This document shows, piece after piece, positions 1 to 20,000 of a DNA stretch of 20,000 nt. Origin of the DNA: Elsinoe ampelina (Eukaryota); assembly GCA_010093995.1 (NCBI GenBank), contig ML992504.1, positions 1,050,925-1,070,924 of the forward strand, read 5' to 3'. Below the pieces are notes generated by a model. The model was not told the DNA's origin. It made no database searches and saw only the letters and a program-made list of their open reading frames with translations. Each line of letters opens with the position of its first letter. Positions within the stretch are counted from its first letter, which is position 1. A program made the translations under genes and the position numbers.

Positions 1-1316
1 GTCTTCTCCCACAGCCCCGTCGCCTTCCCTTTGGCCTCGACCAACACCCTCGCCCCCTCACTCCTCCTCCCCCTCTCCTCCATCCAAAACTCCCTCGCCT
101 CGGTCGGATAACTCGTATGCCTCACCTCAATCTCCCAATCCGGCAAATGCTCCTCGGCCCTCTCAAGCCAATACAACATCCTCTTCTCCCTATCCCCGAC
201 ACCAGCAAAATGCACCAAAAAATCCCCCCTCCTCACCTGAAACGGTGCCAAAGTCTCATTATGCTCCCCCTGATACGCATTAAACCACCTCTGCGGCGCC
301 CACACCACATTCCCCCTGAACCTCGCATCCTTCAACAACTCATCCATGGCAGACTGATCCCTAAACACCAACGGCGCCTCGGGCCTATAAAACCGAAAAC
401 TCACAATCGCAGCAAACAACTCGACCGACCACTGACACACCCTGACGGGGAAAACCCCATTATTCAACCCATTCCAATCCCTCGTCACGAGCAGATTCAC
501 ATCGTCAAACTCGGGGCTAGGCGGCAGGAACGTCTCCACCGGCACGTACGGGTTCAGCAGCACCGTGTCGGCGTCCACCCACAGCAACCACTGCAACCTC
601 TCCGCTTCGGGCTTGGCGAGTTCCCGGAGGAGCAGGGCGAGGATGAACCCGGGTTTGCTCCATACGTCGTCTAGGATCCCGTGACGTAGTACGTGTAAGG
701 GGTACCCGTGCATGCGGTCGTGCGTGATGTGTGTCTTGAGTGCGCGCTCGTAGATGGCTGCTCCGCCGAAGATGATGGTTACTTTGCCGACTGAGGGGCG
801 TGCGCCGAGGAGGTCGGAGCCGGATGGGTGGTAGGTTTCGGTGGTGTTGGGTGGGGAAGAGAGGTTGAAGGTGTCGAGGGTGAAGGTCGCCGGGTAGGTT
901 TTGTTGGGGGACGAGGGGCGGAGCGGGTGTAGGGAGGAGAGGTGTCCCGAGACGGCGTGGCGGAGGTCCGAGAGGGCGGATTTGATGGAGGGGGACTTTG
1001 GGGGTGCGTGGGGTGCGTGGTGGGCGTTGTAAGCAGGGGGAGGGGAGGGATGGGTGGGGTCGTTGTATGCGGTGTGGGCGTCGAGGGGGGCTTCGAGGAT
1101 GTCGGCTGAGGGATAGTCGTATTCGGCGCCGTCAACTTGGGGGCTGCTACTCAGACTGGATGTGAGGAAGTAGCCAAGTAGAATACAGAGACAGGCAATG
1201 GCGGCGAGACGAGCGCGGCCTGCACCAAATGTGCCGACAGTGCGCGCGCGCTGTTTGACCCATCGTGGAAGCTCGTCAACGTTGACGCTAATGAGTGGAG
1301 AGGACGGCGACGACAT
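1..1316 (-). CDS. Glycosyltransferase family 34 (GMA12/MNN10-like galactosyl/mannosyltransferase), type II membrane protein; 3' end lies beyond the window
   Basis: Translated by hand; absent from the ORF track because it has no stop in the window. Open frame from ATG 1316 (context CAAAAAATG): MSSPSSPLISV..., TM anchor RLAAIACLCILLGYFL, P/H/S-rich stem, then VWSKPGFIL, WLLWVDADTVLLNP (DxD), DWNGLNNGVF, FRDQSAM, APQRWFNAY and GDFLVHFAG, all typical of GT34. An in-frame upstream ATG exists at 1370. Confidence 0.92.
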   Translation of the reverse strand, partial: MSSPSSPLISVNVDELPRWVKQRARTVGTFGAGRARLAAIACLCILLGYFLTSSLSSSPQVDGAEYDYPSADILEAPLDAHTAYNDPTHPSPPPAYNAHHAPHAPPKSPSIKSALSDLRHAVSGHLSSLHPLRPSSPNKTYPATFTLDTFNLSSPPNTTETYHPSGSDLLGARPSVGKVTIIFGGAAIYERALKTHITHDRMHGYPLHVLRHGILDDVWSKPGFILALLLRELAKPEAERLQWLLWVDADTVLLNPYVPVETFLPPSPEFDDVNLLVTRDWNGLNNGVFPVRVCQWSVELFAAIVSFRFYRPEAPLVFRDQSAMDELLKDARFRGNVVWAPQRWFNAYQGEHNETLAPFQVRRGDFLVHFAGVGDREKRMLYWLERAEEHLPDWEIEVRHTSYPTEAREFWMEERGRRSEGARVLVEAKGKATGLWEK

Positions 1317-1391: not shown

Positions 1392-2939
1392 TTAAGAGAT
1401 TATCTCGGCATCCCTTGCGTCGAGCTCTCGAACCCTTCGTTCATGCCAGATGCTCATGGCAACTTTTTTACCGAGCGCTCGCCGCGAATACAAGGTACTG
1501 TCCGTTGATTCTATCAAGCCAACGAAGCTGCCAATCCGCTCGCCGGCCTTTACCAATGTCTCGTACTGTTTGCCCGGACCACTTGAATACCTCACCAGGT
1601 CGGGGTCGAAGACGACTGTATTTTCCGGGAAGATGACCACAACTGTGCTTCCTCCGTACTGGAAGTAGCCCAGTGGCCGTCCACGGTATACTTCTTCTCC
1701 CGTTTGGATACCTTCGATGTACTTGATGCTGCCAACAAGCATGGCTCCGATCGCCACAACAAAGATGTATTTGCCAGTCGAATGCTCGATGATGCGCATC
1801 ACACTGCGTCGATTTGCACAGAACACGTCGAGTGTATTTGCCTGAGCCTTACGTAAGAATAGGTTTGGATGATTGCAGCGGGAAACTTACCTGCCTGACG
1901 GCTTGTGGATTGACCGTATAGTATGCTCCTGGTATCTCCTTGATGTCAACAATTGTGCCCTCCACGGGAGAATGCCAGCGATGATAGTCTTGGGGTGCGA
2001 GTCGGTGAATGGCAATGCTGGCAGATCCGAGTTCACGCGCCCAGGCTTCATTTTCAATCAAGGTCTCCAAGCTGAAGCCGAAGCCTTTGATCCAAAACTG
2101 AGTCGCCTGCAGGATAGATCGGTACACAACCGTGCGGCTGTCCGCAGCTGCTGAGATTGCATCTTCCTGCCATCTGTTAGCTTGTTCCTGTGAGTCCACC
2201 GACAAACATCGCCTACATCATCTGGGTCGGTAATTGGCCGGGCTGCTGGTTTGAGTGCCCGGCCAAAAAATTCATTGAATGATTCGTAGGATTCCAGATG
2301 CTCAAACTCCCACTCTGTCTCGGTATCCTCGAGATGATAGTGTTGGATGAAGTACCTGATATAGTCACGACTATCAGTAGAATCGTACAGTCGGCCAAGC
2401 CTCTCCGTTTGCTCTTTCAGTAAATGTTTCGCCGCGTCGGTTTGCAAAAGCCTGATTTGAGGCGAGCCACAGTACAAGAGGTGCATGCCGAGGCGGACGA
2501 AAAGCGGCATCCGTTCCTACTCCTTCATGCCTGACTCTCGAATGATGTAGTAGTTGCCAGCTTGCATGCGATCAAGCAGTTCATGCATCGTCTCGGGATT
2601 GAAAGGCCGCGCGTGACATGCATACATGAAGCGATGCATCCAGTCATCTCCAGCCTCCTGGTGGTACGTGACGCTCATGAAGAGAAATCGATCGTGGTGA
2701 AACTTATCGTCCTGCTCTGCGACGACTCGCTCTGCAGCAAAGTAATTGGATACGCTGGCTAGATGCTGGTCGGTCTCCTCGTCGCCGCTGCTACTGCCGT
2801 CGCTTGCCTCGCTTGGCCGTGACTCGGACTCACTGTCATTGTCATTGTCATCGCCTGATTCGCTTGCCAGGGTCCGAGGCTCGGATCCGTTGTCATCATT
2901 GGGGATGCTTGCAAGTGTCTGAGGTTCGTGGTCCGTCAT
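1392..2939 (-). CDS. Phosphatidylserine decarboxylase proenzyme (PSD2-type catalytic domain, no C2 domains), 3 exons, with an in-frame TAG at codon 141 (possible pseudogene or edited gene)
   Basis: Exons 2939-2217, 2166-1891 and 1841-1392. Introns 2216-2167 (GTAGGC..GCTAAC..CAG, 50 nt) and 1890-1842 (GTAAGT..CTTAC..CAG, 49 nt). Motifs FNEFFGRALKPAARPI, AADSR, RLAPQDYHRWHSP, AIGAMLVGSI and the YFQYGGST self-cleavage site are intact. TAG at 2519-2517 lies in frame between GNYYIIRESGMKE and ERMPLFVRLGMHLL. Confidence 0.88.
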
Positions 2940-5172: not shown

Positions 5173-6624
<1,452 letters not shown>

Positions 6625-7513
6625 TCAGCCCAAGGATGTTGTCGAGGTCGTTCTTGCGGCCAGGCTCCAATCGCACGATGTTGACAAATGTTTGTCTGTT
6701 GAAATGATCCGGTAGGTGGAGGATTTCGATTGTGCGCGTCAAGAAGTGTTGTGCCAGAGAATAACTCCTCAATGATTCCGATGATGATCTGGGAAAAAGT
6801 CGCGAACACGGGTTCCTGTGGAAGAGCTCTGGTCTTTTGAAGCTAACCCTTTTTGGCTAGCGAATTTTTGACCGCAAACAGTTCACACCTTGTGCTACAA
6901 CCCGCAACCAAGGAATATGCTTGTAGGGCACAATGACTGCTCGTGGAAGTCACGACGTTGCGAGAAAAGGCGCTACTTTCTGTGATCCTTTCTGATGCCT
7001 CTTATGTGCGAAGTCCCTCTTCGATGACATGGGAAGAAGCAAGTGCTCTGGACCACGCCAAGTATGCAGAATTACTCGATTCGTTTAGCGCTAAGCTTGC
7101 GTTTAATAATGCGGCGCGTCGACGTGCCGTATATCTCCTCGCCAGACGCATTCGATAATCCTTCCAATTCGCCGTGCTATTGGCTCGGAAGCGCATTCCG
7201 CTGCAGACCATCGCCGCCACATACAATCTCAGACATAATTGACAGGATCCTGGTTCAGACAGGTCGGTCAGCTGCAGACCGCTCGAGCGGCCTGGGACTT
7301 GTTCTGCTGGTGGGTTCTCTTCCATGTGTTTCCATGCGACAGAAACGACAATCACTCAGAGTTGTCTTGTTGTCGTCGCAGTATCAACACGCTCCTCATC
7401 ACATGTGGCAGGTGCGGCACGACCTGTTGTCGCAAGGGATCCCTCCACTTTCCATTTAAATTCCATCCTTTCACTTTCACCTTTCCCTGCCACCTTGCAT
7501 TCTCATAATCACC

Positions 7514-10500
7514 ATGGCCCGGCACAGGCGCTCTGACGGCCGTCCTAGGTATCGACAACACGACGTCTGGCCAGATCGCGAAAGGCACTACTCCCTAGAA
7601 GGAACATGGGCGGGAAGCCCCACCTCTTATACATTGTCCCGCCATCCTATCGATATGGATCGGTAAGTCGTGTTGGGTATCTTGGTATGCTTTCATCTCA
7701 CACCTTCTACAGTATCGATGCACAACATCAACCACCACCAAAACGCATTCGTGATGATCATGCCCAAGATGGGTCCCGAAAGGTTCCCAGGCTTGCCGAT
7801 GTGCCTCATACGTCCACCATCTCCTTGAGCGAGTCACAAATCGAACAGATCGAGCAGTTTGGGAAAAATCTGATCGAATTCACTACTAAGCAAATCGCTT
7901 TCGTTGAGGACGATCGCAACCTCACACAAATGAGAAAGGAGTACGAAAAAGTCAAAGAGCATCACCGTACGTTTGGCAAGTCTCCCGTACATCTGGAAAA
8001 TGCCCTCCGAGACCGCACAGCACAGCGTGACCGCCACGAAAGAGAGCGCAGTGCCAATGAACGTGCTATTGAGGATGCTCTTAGTCAACTTTTCCTAAGT
8101 GTCCTCAGCCATCACAACGTCATGCGCGCGGACTCACCCACGATCCCTAGTGCTTCAACACAAGAGATCATAGCATTACAAAATCAGATTGCAAAATTGC
8201 AGGATACACAAACGAGCGCGTTCGGTGCAGCTCACAGCGCCGAAGAGAAGTTCCTACGCCATGAGCGCGAACAAAATGATCGTACCGCTGACATTCGGAG
8301 AGAGCTACGTGAGCTCGCAGATCAACACAAGAGAGAGCGGGACGACCTACATAATCAGATTCAGGATCTGAAAGCCACCAATGCAAAACTCAGAACTGAT
8401 CAAGCGATCTTATCTGCCAGGCTACCAAAGCTTGAAGAAAGGACTACTAGCATGGAGAACATTCAGAAAGCCTCTTCTACTATGGGTGAGAAGATCGACC
8501 TTGCGACAAGCTCTATCACATCTGTCGCCAGCGATACTTCACTTGTGAGAGATAAGATGGCTCTCATCGACAAGCTCAAAGACACTCAAGAACGTCACGA
8601 TCTTTCTATCAAATCACTAGAAAATACAGACAAGTCTCGCAAGGCCTCGATCGAAGCCATTGACACCAATGTGAAGAAGTTGTCCGAAAAGAGCCACGCA
8701 GATCACACTACCCTCAGAATCGAATTGGACAACCTGGAGAAGAAGCATGTTGATGAAATCTCAAAGGTGGACAAATCCATAGCTGGTCTCGAGCTCAAGA
8801 TGGGCAAATTCCCCACAAAATCAGCACTTCAACAAGAGATCACACGGACGGAAGCTTCAATCCAATCACAAATTGGCAACTATCTACAGGAAGGTTCCAG
8901 CATATATGACAACATGGTGGCACGCTTGGCAACCCTTAGTAAAGAACAGGTGCAAACGCAAATGGACGCGGAACGACCAAAGATGGCGGACAAGCTCGAA
9001 GCACTTAAAACAAGTTCAGCAAAGGAATTGGTCAAGCTCTCGTCCGAGGTCAAACAGAGTAGCACAAACACTCTAAAGGAGCTGTCCAACGAGATCAAGC
9101 AGATCAAGGCAAGACAAGTCTCAATGCCGGTAAACATCACATCGCAGCTAGAAGACCTTCAGAAGAGTAGTCATGAGATGAGCGAGCGGCTCGATGTCCA
9201 CACACGCGCCCAAAATGAGTTTAGGGTGCGTCTCGAACACTTCACAAAAAACCAACGTCAAGCGGAAGCATCTCGTCCCCCTATCGATCAGCAAGCAGCC
9301 CAGCAGCAGAGACCTCGTCAGGCCTCTCAGCTGCATTCACCACTTCATGCACAATCTGGACAACATCTGTCAAGCATTAGTACTACGCCTGCAGTCTCAA
9401 GCCAGCTTCAGAGCTCTCCAGTATTACATCACGGCGGTCCGCGCAGTCAGTCTCAGTCTCCAGTGTACATGCAGCCCGCTCAACAATTCGGTAGCATCAA
9501 CGGTACTGTCATGCAAGGCCCCATTCCAGGCCAAGCTGTACCCCATTGGCATACCCCCGTGCCAGGTCAGACCCGCCTACCTCAACAGACATTCGCTCCC
9601 CCTCAGCAGTCTGCGACCCCTGCCGGTCTTAGCAACGTCGAAAGGACGCAGATCTTGAGAGAGCTCTTCGAGACTATCAGCAGAGAGCTTGTAAGGCCTG
9701 GCAGCATCATACTCCAGACGAATGAGAAAGTTGACAAAGCGTTGGCAACGATCTCGCCAGTCGTACAGGAAGAGCTGAATCGTATCCGGGACCACTTTGA
9801 GCAAAGGTTGAGTGGACAGAACACCTTTGCGACGAATCTTATGGCCACCGTCAATGAAGCGAATAGCCGGATCAATCGAGCTATGGATAAGCATGATGAT
9901 ATAGAGAAGCGTGTCGGCAGCCTTGAGCGCATCAGTAACACAGCACTAGCTGGTCACTTGATGGGTATGGGAGAGGGGACACCACGTATCGCTACCCCGA
10001 AGAGCGCCTCGCCTGGTCCATCGGATCTCTCCAGCGTCAAGTCGGACATCAATCGTCTGATGAACGACTACCAGTCATTGAGCGAGAAAGTAGAGATCCA
10101 AAGTGGAGAGATTGATGGGCTTAAAGGCGACACCGCAAAACTTGTCGACAATGCTGAGACAATGACTGATAGGGCTGACGACCTAGGCCAATTGATCAGA
10201 GCTAGCGAGAAGGAAATCTCCAAGCTACGCAAGGACCACACAAGTCTGTCCACCACACTCAAACTCGTACAAGACCAGAGCCAGACCACATCGTCCGGCC
10301 ACAACGTTATCAGGACTCTAACCGAGACTCACGACTCCAGACTGGCCGACTTGGAAAGACTGGTCCACACCCACGACACACTTCTCGACAAAGCAGATCC
10401 GAACACAATCCCAGCCCTCCGCATGACCGTCAAGGAGAACTCCTCCCAGCTCGACGACCTCGAAAAGCTGGACCTCCCCGGTATCAGAGCCACAGCAGAG

Positions 10501-10707
10501 AAAGCCGACAAGGGTATCAAGAAGCAGATCGCCCGCGAAGGTGTCATTAAGAACTCCATCGCCAGGCTGGAAGGACATGTCAAGTTGACCAAGACGAATT
10601 TTGAGGCCGAGGACAGGGTCGCTGTTGGGAGGGTCAGGGCAGCGGAGAAGAAGAGAGCCACGGAGCAGTCTGACGCCTCGAGTGTGGCGGGGAAGGGGAC
10701 GTCTTAG
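7514..10707 (+). CDS. Large coiled-coil protein of unknown function (~1047 aa spliced) with a central Q/P/S-rich low-complexity linker
   Basis: Exon 1 is 7514-7662 (ACCATGG start after a pyrimidine-rich leader; MARHRRSDGRP...). The intron is 7663-7712 (GTAAGT..CTCAC..TACAG, 50 nt). Exon 2 (7713-10707) joins in frame to the 1033-aa track ORF. Heptad-rich E/K/L/Q segments flank the PQQSATP-type region. The frame stays open for 33 more codons after the TAG. Confidence 0.85.
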
Positions 10708-13217
10708 GAAGATGTCATCTTGATTGATGACAGAGCTGTGTCGGATGTTGTGGAGGTCGGGAGGAGTCCTCCATCGACCGCGAGGGTGAAATTGGAAAGG
10801 ACGAGTTAGACGGCAGGGAAAGGTGTGAATGCTGCTGCTCTACCCTCCTCGTCGCCGGGATTCATATGAAGGAGCGAGGCGGATGGGGAGATGGGAGGAA
10901 GAATGTACAACTCGCATCCGACGACGGGGACTCCGCCCGCGCAGGACGACGGATGGTATCACGCCTCGGTATCTCGGTTTCTCTCGGTCTCCCGGTATAT
11001 ACCCACGACTATCACGGCTGGCCTTCTTAGCGTTGCATCGTATACCCCCGTAGCAGGCATTGTAATTATTTTCGGTTCTTGTCCTCCTGAGCCCTCTTCG
11101 TATGTCCTGCCCCGGCTTGTCCTGATCTGCCCTGGTTGTCCCATGTCTTGGGCATGTGTTTTTGCCGCGGCACATTTGTTGCGATGGCTTGGCGTGTGAC
11201 ACTTGTGTGCCGGTCTTGATACTTGACTGGAGGGGTAGTGTACCTGCCCAGGCTCAGCTTGAGAAGGATGGGTGGCTGGGCAGGCATGGAGCAGGGTAGT
11301 GCTAGGTTGGACCAAGGCAGGCGGGGCGTCACGGGCTTGGGGCAGGGGGGATGGTCCCATCTTGGTCGAGCTTGGTCGGTCTGTTCGACGATCGAATGTT
11401 GGTCTGTTCCTGAACGGGATGTGCGGGAGGATCTAAGATGTGCTAATGCGATCTTGGATGGGGGCGATGTAGCCGTTTTGGGATGGTCGCATTGATGGCA
11501 GAGTACTGTAGACCAGGATGGTATGGGTGTCTGTAGAGCCGCGGTCTTGACTGTTGCTGTGGCTGGGGAGAGCTTCGAGGCGTCAGGGGTTTGAAAAGGG
11601 CTTACTACGTGGCCCGCAAAGTGCACTGGGCCGGTGTCGGTGTTGCTGTGAAGATGTCTGTTTCCCTCGGGAGGCAGTCTCACGTGACGAAGAGAGGTCT
11701 ATAGCTTTGTATAATGGTGGCTTCACCTTGCACAACGTGGACGAGATCGGTAGGTCTTGCAGTAGAAGGACTCCGACCTGGAAGTTTACAAATCTCCCTA
11801 CTTGATGGTGGATGGAGTGACGCATTGGCCGCATGTCCATGTTAGGAAAGTGCGCTCCTATCATGGTCGACGTAGACACACCGTTGGCATTTTCCTGTGC
11901 CATGGTGGATCATACTGCACGGTGCTCAATATGTTGGTCACATACCTGCAGACCAGCACAGACTCAAAGGGAGTCGATGTTGACTTGGCTGGACCTGCTG
12001 CGGGACACACCTCAAGAAGCAATCAAAGAGGGCGCTTTGAGATCGTCGGTGGCAACATTCTACTCACAGTCGAGGAGTATCAGACAAATGCCTCGGTCAA
12101 TCGCTCAATGATCAATTTCCCCGTCGACATCAATGAGGGCAAAGACTGGCCCTGTGACCTCTTCAAGCCTACCAGCGGGTCGTGATGCCAGAGCGGCAGG
12201 ATTACGTTGTGGGGCGCGTAAATATCGGGTGAAAGCCATGGGGGTGGCGTTCAGGCACGAGAAGTGCATGTGCTTGATAGAACCGTGCTTGAGATGCAGA
12301 GCGATGTGCCTCGGTGTGTTAGCACAATGTCACCACAGATACTTTCGGCATTCACGTCTGGAGCCGAAGGCGGGGGGTTCTTCTCTGCAGCAATCTTCTT
12401 CGTGGTGTGAACGATCGCTGTGGACCTCGTGGTATGGTTTACTGTGCCTTACACCAGGGGCTTGCAGGTCGCAAGCACACGTCCTGCTACTGTGGAAGCG
12501 AAGGGCCCGTGGGAGCTTCAAGGGCTCCTGCGCAGAAATCGATGCTTCGCCATTATCAACGACGATGTATTCAATGCTCATGCGCCTAGACTTGAGTCGG
12601 CGCACGAAAGTCCAGGCTTAGCCAAGAACAATGTTTTGGGCAAACTCCAAGCCGCTTGGGTGTGACGCTGCAATCCCACACGCGCAGTTTCTTGCTGGTG
12701 GTCCTGAGCCGCGGTTGTAGTTCCTGCCCAGACATCGACGTGGAATTGGCATTGTGCTAGACACGTACTCCACACCTCAAAGTCGGTGATGGTGGGATAA
12801 AACACGACCATGAATGCATGTCAACCATGCAGTAGATCACTCCATCGGGCTTCTCGATTGATGGTGACAAATGGGGACCAAGCATGGCCGCAGGACGTCG
12901 AGGACGAGCTCGAGGTTTTGCGGAGTAACACTTTTGCGGAGTATGCACGCCAGGCCAAGATGCCAGACCTGCATAGCGGAGTGCTTCCCGGAACATGTCC
13001 GTAGCCATATTGGTGAGATGGTGGCGGAGTACTCGTGGGGAAAGGCGGAGAAGAGCACGTGCGGTCTGCAGGACATCTGTCGATACCATCCTGTCAATTA
13101 ATAATCGCCGTGTGCATGCATGACGGAGTAATATGGCAGGGAGTGCATGGTGAAAAGGAAAAGTCAAAGCCGGAGCTTACTCGTTTGGATGTCGCTTACA
13201 GCTCCATAGCAAAGATA

Positions 13218-14895: not shown

Positions 14896-15631
14896 ATGAA
14901 GTTCAACCTCGCTCTTCTTGGTCTTGCTGGCATTGCTGCCGCCAACCCCATCCCCGAGGCCGTGCCTGAGGCTGAGCCAGTCCTCGAAGCTCGCCAATTC
15001 GGCAGCGACACCGCCAACGAGTTGGTCAACGGTGCTTGCCGCCGTATCACCTTCATCTGGGCTCGTGGTTCCACCGAGCCAGGCAACCTTGTACGATGTC
15101 CAACTATAGAAGGTCCGAATACCAAGCTAATCATCTGAACAGGGCTCCACTCTCGGACCCGATGTCTGCTCCGGCTTGAAGTCCCGCTTCGGCAGTACCA
15201 GCGTTGCTTGCCAAGGGATTGGCGGTCCTTACACCGCTTCCATCGGCGACAATGCTCTGCCCGTTGGCACCACCCAGGCTGCCATTGGCGAGGGTGTTCG
15301 TCTCTACAACCTGGCCTCCACCAAGTGCCCCCAGACCATCATCGTCGGAGGTGGTTACTCTCAGGGTGGCGCTGTCACTCACGGTCTCGCTCGTGCCCTC
15401 TCCAGCACTGTCCGTGGCCGCGTCGCTGGTCTTCTCACCTTTGGTGATACTCGCAACCAGGCTGACGGTGGCCGCATTCCTCCCTTCCCTGCTTCTCAGA
15501 CCAGAATTATTTGCACCAATCTCGACCCCATCTGCCGCGGTCAGCTCATTGTCACCCTTGCTCACCTGTCCTACGGCGATGATGTCCCAACTGGTGTCAA
15601 CTTCCTTGCTGGCCGCATCAACGCCGTCTAG
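14896..15631 (+). CDS. Secreted cutinase (CE5), 227 aa, 2 exons
   Basis: Exon 1 is 14896-15090, the intron 15091-15142 (GTACGA..GCTAAT..ACAG, 52 nt), exon 2 15143-15631. Signal peptide [16 protein letters not shown], propeptide ending [16 protein letters not shown], nucleophile motif [18 protein letters not shown] (Asp) and AHLSY (His). Confidence 0.96.
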
Positions 15632-17426: not shown

Positions 17427-17836
17427 TAGGGTGGTCGAGTGAGTAATTACTATACTCTAAAATTACAACGTGACTTTTCGTGAAATTTTCGTGTTTTTTG
17501 ATGTTTTTACGTGTATTAGTAAGCTTCTTTTATAATCTAAAGTATTTTTTCTATACTATAAAAAAATCTACATTTTTTGGTACTACTTTCGCTTACGTAA
17601 TTCTAGATCCTGATTTTTAGAAGAAGAAAGAAATTTGAAATCACTACTAAAAATCAGGATCTAAGATTACATAAGCAAAAATAGTACTAAAAAATGCAGA
17701 ATTTTTGATAGTATAGATAAAATATCTTTATTAGTAAAATACGCTTACTAATACACGTTAAAATATCAAAAAACACGAAAATTTCACGAAAAGTTACATT
17801 GTAATTACTATACTCTAAACCCACTTAACTACCCTA
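17427..17836. mobile_element. 410-bp non-autonomous hAT-like element (MITE) with 18-bp TIRs and an 8-bp target-site duplication
   Basis: Left TIR TAGGGTGGTCGAGTGAGT versus reverse-complemented right TIR TAGGGTAGTTAAGTGGGT (4 differences, all transitions). Flanks are AATTAATC (17419-17426) and AATTAATT (17837-17844). No coding capacity. Confidence 0.75.
17461..17806. repeat. Long imperfect inverted repeat: 160-bp arms (17461-17620 and 17647-17806) with a 26-bp spacer
   Basis: AATTACAACGTGACTTTTCGTGAAATTTTCGTGTTTTTTGAT... pairs with ...ATCAAAAAACACGAAAATTTCACGAAAAGTTACATTGTAATT. The inner ends AGATCCTGATTTTTAG and CTAAAAATCAGGATCT also pair. Confidence 0.95.
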
Positions 17837-17869
17837 AATTAATTTTTTCCTCCCCTACACAAGTTAATA

Positions 17870-17880
17870 GTTATAAGCCC
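17870..17880 (+). other. Copia-type primer-binding-site relic
   Basis: GTTATAAGCCC is a RIP version of the (G)GTTATGAGCCC motif that follows the 5' LTR in many Copia elements. Confidence 0.55.
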
Positions 17881-18037
17881 GGTATAACTACCCCTATATA
17901 AGTATATTACTTAGTTGCTTTTCTACTCTATTTATTAGTTAATTCTCTACTATCTTACTTTTTAAGTATTAGAATCTATTAAGAACTACCTTAACTATAA
18001 CTATAGGATTTAGGTGTTAATAAGGAGATAAACAACT

Positions 18038-20000
18038 ATAGATACTAACACCTTAATAGCTAGAACACTTATTATTCTTACTATATTAGCTAAATAGGCT
18101 AGCTAGCTATATATTATTAAGATAAGAGTATTAAATACTAAGATATAGAACCTTATTAATCCTTAGAAGACTATTAAACTAGAAGGGCTCCCTAAGCCTT
18201 AGAGGCTAGAAGTAGTAAATATTAACTTCTTAGTACTCTTTTAGATATATAAGAAGAAATAAGTATAATATAATAAATAGTATAAGGCCTTAGCTAATTT
18301 AGCTAGCTTTATTTAGTTATTAATTGTACTATAAGTTCTTACTATTATCTAACTAGAAGAGGATTCTTATCTATAGGCTATTCTTAGAGTATTAAAGAAT
18401 AGATTTACTCTATCTAATATAGCTATTTAGCTTAAGGTTAAAGTACTTTAGAGGAAGTAGCTATCTAGCTCTTTCTTATAGAATATAGACTATTAGCTTT
18501 AGTAATAGGAAGAGGTTATAGACAAGGCTAGGAACTATAATCTACTAGAAGCTTAAGGCTTAAGGCTATAGAGAGACTTCTTACTCTCTATCTTAAAGAC
18601 TAAACTAGTATTTACTAATAAGTACCTTATTAATCTAGATTTACTAACTCTACTAACTATGCTTAAACTAATTACTAAGTTTAGATAGTTTTATAAACTC
18701 TATAAGCTATATAGTACTATAAAGGCTAGTAAGGGGGCTATAGCCCTTTCTATAGCTACTAAGAATATTCTTTATAAGAAACCTAGTCTCTATAGAGAGC
18801 CTAAATATATATACTAAAGCTAGTATAAGTAGATTAAGTGCTATTACTTAAATAAGTATCTAAGGCTAGAAGGATAGACACTAAACTAGTAGACTATAAA
18901 GGAGGTTAAATAAAGGCTAAATAATAAGACTCTTAAAGAGAGAATTAAGGCTTCTATTACTAAGGAAGTATAATATTAAAAGGAGTTAACTCTACTAGTA
19001 TTAATTAATATAGCTATTACTATTAAATTATACTTAATATTTATCTTAGCTACTACTAATATCTTAAGCTTATAGATACTAGATTCTAGAGTAACTAATT
19101 ACATCTATAATTATACTATAAAGGATAGATATAAGGTTACTAGAATTATAGAACCTTATAAGAAACTATTCTATAGTAATACCTTACTTAGTATTAAGAG
19201 TTAAAGAACTATTAATATTATAGCTCTTTATAAAGGAAAGTCTATAACTATCTATCTTATAAAGGTAGCCTATATACTATTAATTATAACTAATCTAGTT
19301 AGCCTTAGGAGGTTTATTAATAGTAGAGTCTACTAGAACACTTAAACTATAGAGATTAGCTATAAAGGAAAAGTACTCTTCTTAGTTATACTAAAGTATA
19401 ACTAATATATTCTTAAGAATAACTCTAAAGCTTCTAATATTACTACTATAGTATTAAGGAATAATAATAATTATCTACTATTAGTATTTACTATAGTTAC
19501 TATAAGGACTAATTAATCTTAGTATAAAGTTATAGGCTATCTAAGCCTAGAGTCTATTAATTACCTTCTAACTACTATAGTTAGTAGTAAACTAACTCTA
19601 ACTAAGCCTAGTTTAGCTTAACTAATTTATCTTAGGTCTTTATATTAGACATATAAGCTATTAAATACTTAGTAGATTATATTAAGGAGCTCTAATACTA
19701 AACTTACTATATTAAAGCTATTTAAGAGAACTACTTTTAATATTATTATTAATAGATTTACTAGCTATAATAAGGTAAGATATATAAGCTACTTTACTTA
19801 TAGGACTACTAACTATTAACTAGTTACTACCTATACTTATAGATATAAAATTAATAAAATCTATATTAAGATAATTACTTATATTAAAAGCAATTTTAGC
19901 TTTAAAATTAGATTCCTTAGAAGTAATAATAAGAGGGCCTTTAGCCTTAAATTTACTATTTTTCTAGATAGTAAAGAAATCTATTATAAGCTATCTACTC
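18038..20000 (+). pseudogene. Copia gag-pol relic with many RIP-induced stops
   Basis: ATA(ATG)GAT.. at 18038 de-RIPs to a gag-like start (IL....EWASWLYIIK..A....IWNLIDP). Trp and Gln codons are systematically converted to TAG/TAA. Confidence 0.8.

Follow-up and report, generated by a model that had tools for sequence, protein, structure and literature searches.

A TAG stop codon within a hairpin, followed by a coding-like tail, in a coiled-coil gene of Elsinoe ampelina

A coiled-coil gene of Elsinoe ampelina, a fungal pathogen of grape, ends at a TAG codon (positions 10705..10707, plus strand, of the 20,000-nucleotide stretch analysed here, referred to as the window) that is placed in the loop of a hairpin and is followed by 33 open in-frame codons. 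A preliminary description had proposed that A-to-I editing of this codon acts as a stage-specific switch that adds a SUMO-interacting tail to the protein. We consider an ordinary gene end more likely than such a hidden switch. Our best reading, which we hold at about even chances, is that of an ordinary stop in a lineage-restricted gene, with a chance or relic tail and no wider meaning. The hairpin and the tail themselves are real, and it is the editing switch that we doubt. The shared C-terminus of the protein, the unedited and unspliced consensus mRNA and an Ame1 orthologue of ancestral type are directly observed parts of this reading.

The gene, its transcript and its end in related species

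The preliminary description had noted that an editing site would be of particular interest outside Sordariomycetes and had suggested RVB2 as a marker of the host, a placement that was borne out. RVB2 (5173-6624, minus strand) is 95% identical to its counterpart in Elsinoe australis and 94% to that of Sphaceloma murrayae, and a DUF726 protein of this genome matches an Elsinoe ampelina entry with 100% identity over 371 residues, E. ampelina being a Dothideomycete. A sexual stage exists for this species and is described as poorly known (PMC8295512). Within the window, an AT-rich block at 17500-20000 (GC 22-29%) has RIP-type dinucleotide indices (TpA/ApT 1.85; (CpA+TpG)/(ApC+GpT) 0.16) consistent with past sexual cycles. 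Neighbours recognized with Pfam are a GT34 glycosyltransferase (3-1316, minus strand), a piece of phosphatidylserine decarboxylase (1395-1886, minus strand) and a cutinase (15134-15628, plus strand), while RVB2 and the coiled-coil gene (from 7197 onward, plus strand) are arranged head to head, their transcript ends lying about 450-500 nt apart.

RNA contigs were examined from four of five runs, and the two runs that bridge the stop, X1 and X2, come from two studies. No run is on record as RNA, and X1 and X2 were taken as RNA because spliced joints are seen in them. The coiled-coil gene is expressed and spliced: a single X1 contig covers 7197-11059, from which two GT..AG introns of 239 nt (7310..7548) and 50 nt (7663..7712) have been removed, both joints being also present in X2. 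The first transcript exon (7197..7309) is non-coding in the frame of the gene, the first in-frame ATG of the spliced transcript (7655..7657) opens a product of about 1000 amino acids, and the main coding exon extends from 7713 to 10707, the TAG closing a stop-to-stop frame of 1052 codons. The mRNA was expected to cover the tail and does so, extending past 10809 to at least 11059 in the X1 contig, where 10810..11059 forms further 3' untranslated region. Beyond this end, at 11140-11599, two X1 contigs of low depth (2.9 and 4.25) correspond either to a longer 3' form or to a separate transcript. At the other end of the gene, intron 1 holds an in-frame ATG (7514..7516) in a strong context, opening an N-terminal piece of about 47-49 residues (7514-7662, plus strand) that resembles the N-terminus of the E. 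fawcettii protein (36% identity, E 5e-5). The spliced transcript of X1 and X2 removes this ATG, and the contigs may have lost a short 5' tip. Use of an inner promoter, or retention of the intron, may thus give the gene a second N-terminus.

The product was modelled by AlphaFold, with low confidence (mean pLDDT 53.5), as a long helical, coiled-coil protein with a disordered Q/P-rich middle. No Pfam family passed the cut-off, a PDB search returned generic coiled-coil matches only, the Atlas lead "Paramyosin" scored 0.88 and 0.83, under the 0.9 mark of the tool, and a paralogue search in the same genome matched only the gene itself. The family appears confined to Elsinoe and Sphaceloma: when 1.84 billion representatives were searched in full with HMMER, four members were retrieved, one each from E. 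batatas, E. fawcettii, E. australis and S. murrayae. Two metagenome scans for relatives gave 447 and 361 pattern matches, none of which was confirmed.

The E. batatas orthologue, 85% identical overall, has the same KGTS end, and the three more distant ones, at 25-31% identity, stop short of the TAG position by 5, 10 and 5 residues. When annotated proteins are compared, the tail is therefore found in none of the four orthologous species, whose ends lie 0-10 residues from the TAG. The preliminary description had offered as its own alternative a private nonsense allele (CAG or TGG changed to TAG), that is a recent mutation, in the strain or the species, that cut a normal C-terminus. A coding-like tail is the one thing that speaks for it. 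Because all four orthologues stop at or just before the TAG and lack the tail, both this allele and a PSC-type site are refuted, and with runs from two studies carrying the TAG we find a recent truncation hardly credible. A recoded canonical stop is a different matter, given that the annotation of a protein would stop at the TAG in either case, and orthologue C-termini cannot exclude it. We put at about even the chance that this coiled-coil gene, restricted to Elsinoaceae, has its normal, long-established end at the TAG.

The hairpin over the stop and the sequence behind it

The hairpin (10698..10716, plus strand) comprises six firm pairs, one of them G-U, and two U-A pairs closing an AGG loop. 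It is stable in windows of 61 to 501 nt, the outer pairs having P 0.80-0.99 and A10706 being unpaired with P 0.93-1.0. Placement of the stop in a stable hairpin loop thus stands, whereas the accompanying proposal of a tRNA anticodon-arm mimic is not supported, the inner U-A pairs being predicted closed (U10704-A10710, P 0.83-0.96; U10705-A10709, P 0.57-0.67). The form predicted has eight pairs and an AGG triloop; in these models the predicted loop has 3-5 nt, and a 7-nt "anticodon" loop left open is a minority form. A register with a 7-nt loop and six or more pairs is possible for 0.44% of 26,106 TAG triplets and for 1 of 42 control TAG stops, and neither a tRNA gene nor an Rfam family was found. 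Compared with shuffled sequences, the fold is not better in windows of 51-141 nt (z -1.2 to -1.4) and is better only in windows cut tightly around the hairpin. A match to a bacterial-type terminator at the hairpin was discarded as meaningless in a fungus.

Around the stop, UUAGGAA (10704..10710, plus strand) matches the preferred base of the F. graminearum editing consensus (PMC9600606) at each of the six positions from -2 to +4. This match is a point in favour of editing that the preliminary description had missed, and with it all the cis features of Fusarium editing sites, namely U at -1, the context and the hairpin loop, are present. The same bases contain the tetranucleotide UAG-G (PMC4615788).

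Behind the stop the frame reads EDVILIDDRAVSDVVEVGRSPPSTARVKLERTS up to a second TAG (10807..10809, plus strand), so that the 33 open codons (10708..10806, plus strand) are as they had been described. They contain a SIM-like motif, EDVILIDD (10708..10731, plus strand), and a psi-K-x-E motif, VKLE (10786..10797, plus strand), sequence patterns whose functions are putative. Both motifs had been reported and do exist. Among 27,305 shuffled versions of the tail that stay open, 88 contain both, a count to be read with the motifs having been picked after the fact, and the main protein contains no psi-K-x-E and one match to the SIM core. If translated, the tail would be disordered.

Controls for the tail and for the stop were drawn from ORF ends of 81 sources covering 820 kb of this genome. 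From 205 ORFs of 300 or more codons, 176 were left without shadows and 56 of these were dropped for a donor-like site upstream, which gave, with the target excluded, 119 ends (42 of them TAG) that are unannotated and some of which will be false ends. The codon score of the tail, 10.4 bits, is reached by 6 of the 119 controls and by 142 of 27,305 open shuffles. In frame, the tail stands out from the other two frames by a coding contrast of 13.0 bits, a value that no control attains in frame (0/119) and 3 of 357 attain in any frame, and that lies above 83 of the 119 true gene ends. At codon position 1 the purine share remains at 0.8 throughout the tail and drops after the second TAG. Judged by its composition, the tail does look coding in frame. 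We also considered a decayed duplicate of the gene end and rejected it, its local alignment being equalled by 746 of 2000 dinucleotide shuffles and its global alignment by 134 of 2000 codon shuffles, with no long repeat.

The same controls indicate how far chance may account for the site. An open run of at least 33 codons after a stop is common (34/119). A hairpin that has six or more pairs and holds the A in its loop is found at 5 of 42 control TAG stops and equally often round TGA (5/56), a best stem of eight or more at the stop in 2 of 119 controls and the six-position editing context at 3 of 42 TAG stops, while context and 6-bp hairpin coincide in 24 of 25,472 TAG triplets. Assuming 10,000 genes and treating the features as independent, which they are not fully, we expect per genome 16-30 TAG stops with context and hairpin, and 0.13-0.25 when such a tail is added. 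Within a single genome such a site is thus rare, while in a scan of many genomes it is nothing out of the ordinary. Stops flanked before and behind by coding-like sequence make up 5 of 23 TAG (counting the target), 4 of 24 TGA and 2 of 14 TAA, and this low-power test within the genome shows no excess of TAG. A control gene for a dipeptidase (Peptidase_M19; at 7873-9630 of L067, minus strand) has a TAG in the same six-base context with 166 open codons behind it; this run-on is acidic and protein-like, and the dipeptidase domain is complete before the stop.

If the TAG is an ordinary stop, ribosomes would terminate there, the tail would presumably go untranslated, and its 33 codons would belong to the 3' UTR and have no programmed role. 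The tail may resemble protein because gene ends are G-rich here, so that triplets of the Glu/Asp/Val/Gly type often follow a TAG, or it may be left over from an extension that, for some time, belonged to the coding sequence in the ampelina/batatas lineage. Hairpin and editing-like context would then be a coincidence expected once in every few genomes. Against an ordinary stop count the unusual in-frame signal of the tail, the rarity of context and hairpin together, and a second TAG beside a hairpin, that of DBF2, considered below.

A selected and translated tail would also fit this in-frame signal, and leaky readthrough would supply such a tail with no editing enzyme: a near-cognate tRNA (Gln or Tyr) would read UAG-G at low frequency and add the 33 residues. 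We regard such readthrough as unlikely, though it deserves to be taken seriously, and see an equally limited chance that its product is a minor isoform in which the SIM-like and SUMO-acceptor motifs, or a degron, come into play. In yeast, UAG-G is reported to leak more than any other UAG context (PMC4615788) and tRNA-Gln(CUG) to prefer it (PMC6614816), and the mRNA covers the tail. On the other side, the mammalian data of the former source place G with the least leaky bases at +4 of UAG, the CAR-YYA motif is absent after the TAG, and structure 3' of it that could be stimulatory is not significant against shuffles (z -1.2, -1.0 and +0.1).

RNA at the stop and the editing machinery

A10706 is bridged in two of the four runs, at depth 52.7 in X1 and 3.8 in X2, with no other letter; X3 also reads A near the end of a contig, and the X4 pieces listed stop at 10692. 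The A>G change called for by the preliminary description is thus not seen in the contigs, a weak test with consensus sequences of no stated stage, from which rare variants have been dropped and stage-specific or low editing could escape. A 56-nt contig of X3 (record 20, depth 2) shares 10680-10709 and departs from the genome upstream of 10680; an artefact of folding back at the extended hairpin may be behind it.

The contigs also bear on a minor splice form, in which the TAG would double as a 3' splice acceptor (CTTAG|G), an in-frame intron would remove the stop and the tail would be the last exon. The acceptor sequence, a CTGAC at 10670 and in-frame GT donors at 10618, 10624 and 10633 could serve it, but none of the four runs has a joint near 10707 that removes the stop, X1 and X2 running straight through, and the donors are of poor quality. 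Between the CTGAC and the intron end there are 38 nt, compared with 16 nt in the two real introns of the gene, and the intron would delete the R..E..R motif common to all orthologues. We consider this form very improbable.

Editing of mRNA in F. graminearum needs Tad2-Tad3 and Ame1, and Feng 2024 reports that residues MV500-501 of Ame1 replaced an ancestral KN and are required, and that the Sclerotinia Ame1 orthologue cannot substitute (PMC11087585). The same source lists one Ame1 copy per Myriangiales species and gives KAF2220993.1 (L003) as the E. ampelina orthologue, one of two DUF726 genes in this genome. We fixed the place of MV by means of the mutagenesis primers of that study, between NPW/F...G/A and RA. 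At that place KS is found in L003 and LA in the other DUF726 gene, and MV occurs in none of the 118 scored close homologues (of 120 listed, two being unparsed). As to its machinery, the editing proposal thus meets an Ame1 orthologue of ancestral type that lacks the MV needed in Fusarium, where MV goes with an Ame1 able to bind Tad3. Genes that we take, from their deaminase motifs, to be Tad2-like (L096/L101) and Tad3-like (L100) are present; their presence says little, these being general eukaryotic tRNA enzymes.

Matched parts of RID-like and SPO11 genes contain no in-frame stop, a check of low power. The gene L092 (G000:C6, about 846,200), which we presume from its kinase motifs to be DBF2, ends in a TAG that has a hairpin next to it and 71 open codons behind it, the A of this TAG being paired in the MFE structure. 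The DBF2 stop is reported to be edited in Sordariomycetes, while outside this class TAG is found at DBF2 in under 37% and the hairpin in under 34% (PMC13123824). The TAG and hairpin found here can be due to chance.

A review (PMC11156358) lists Sordariomycetes and Pyronema as groups with known editing and states that the fruiting bodies of Aspergillus and Botrytis have none. The origin of editing in Pyronema is independent (PMC11087585), and pseudothecial species were unexamined for editing as of 2020 (PMC7306014). Scattered stops at PSC sites are reported in other classes in which editing was undetermined (PMC10776026). In the literature searched, with most subscription papers outside its scope, we found no editing report for Dothideomycetes or Elsinoe.

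According to the editing hypothesis, Tad2-Tad3 would deaminate A10706 in the hairpin loop and turn UAG into UIG, read as Trp. This would need a cofactor other than an Ame1 of the Sordariomycete type, or cofactor-free editing at low level. The hypothesis fits the cis features best, with six of six preferred bases and a stable hairpin loop, and it could draw on the Tad2-like and Tad3-like genes, on the precedent of Pyronema, on the DBF2 TAG by its hairpin, on the predicted disorder of the tail, as in known stop-loss cases (PMC13123824), and on the 33 hyphal sites, including two stop-loss, of F. graminearum (PMC11169179). Set against these are KS in place of MV in an Ame1 listed with one copy per Myriangiales species, so that the known trans factor is missing, the A read in consensus RNA, the paired A of DBF2, the uninterrupted RID-like and SPO11 parts, the negative fruiting bodies of Aspergillus and Botrytis (PMC11156358), and hyphal FgTad2, which did not edit PUK1 mRNA in vitro (PMC10962958). 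Stop-loss editing at A10706 is in our view improbable, and doubtful to the same degree is its use in ascomata, or at low level in hyphae, to add a disordered tail with SIM and SUMO motifs. Of the proposed switch, the cis features, the coding-like tail, the mRNA cover and the non-Sordariomycete host hold, the anticodon geometry, an A>G signal and a Fusarium-type Ame1 find no support, and the nonsense alternative is refuted.

Significance and comparison with known systems

Should the site be edited, a Dothideomycete would edit A-to-I without the Sordariomycete innovation in Ame1, with Tad2-Tad3 alone or with another cofactor opening the UAG, a prospect that we rate as poor. Either mRNA editing would have originated a third time in ascomycetes, or editing under selection and free of a cofactor would be proven, perhaps with the DBF2 UAG opened likewise. 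The result would also bear on which Pezizomycotina classes edit mRNA, a question named in PMC11156358 and PMC7306014. Thanks to its full cis consensus, the site would then be a ready reporter. If readthrough were true, the gene would represent one more leaky stop, with a SUMO-type tail instead of the usual targeting signal.

The site resembles stop-loss editing of the FgDBF2 type (PMC13123824), which affects 403 genes in F. graminearum according to that source, in having a UAG at a canonical end, an A in a predicted hairpin loop and a short disordered extension. It differs from Sordariomycete stop-loss editing in its Dothideomycete host, in an Ame1 orthologue without MV500-501 and in contigs that show no A>G. 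As the Ame1 MV and the host class, two defining features, are both different here, we do not file the site as a member of the Tad2-Tad3-Ame1 system. With the PSC pseudogenes of F. graminearum (PMC10776026) it shares an in-frame TAG and coding-like sequence behind it, whereas the orthologues of PSC genes continue through the site and here all four species stop at it or before. The hyphal sites of F. graminearum, CHE1 and two of stop-loss type (PMC11169179), likewise have U at -1 and a hairpin loop; they are described as rare, outside the sexual stage and giving extensions of 11-28 amino acids. Such editing is reported only in a Sordariomycete, and the contigs of the present site carry no edited letter. 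Finally, the UAG-G tetranucleotide is common to yeast near-cognate readthrough (PMC4615788, PMC6614816) and to type III viral UAG-G plus pseudoknot. Unlike the viral arrangement, the present stop has no significant structure 3' of it, and its hairpin spans the stop itself, where a translating ribosome would presumably melt it.
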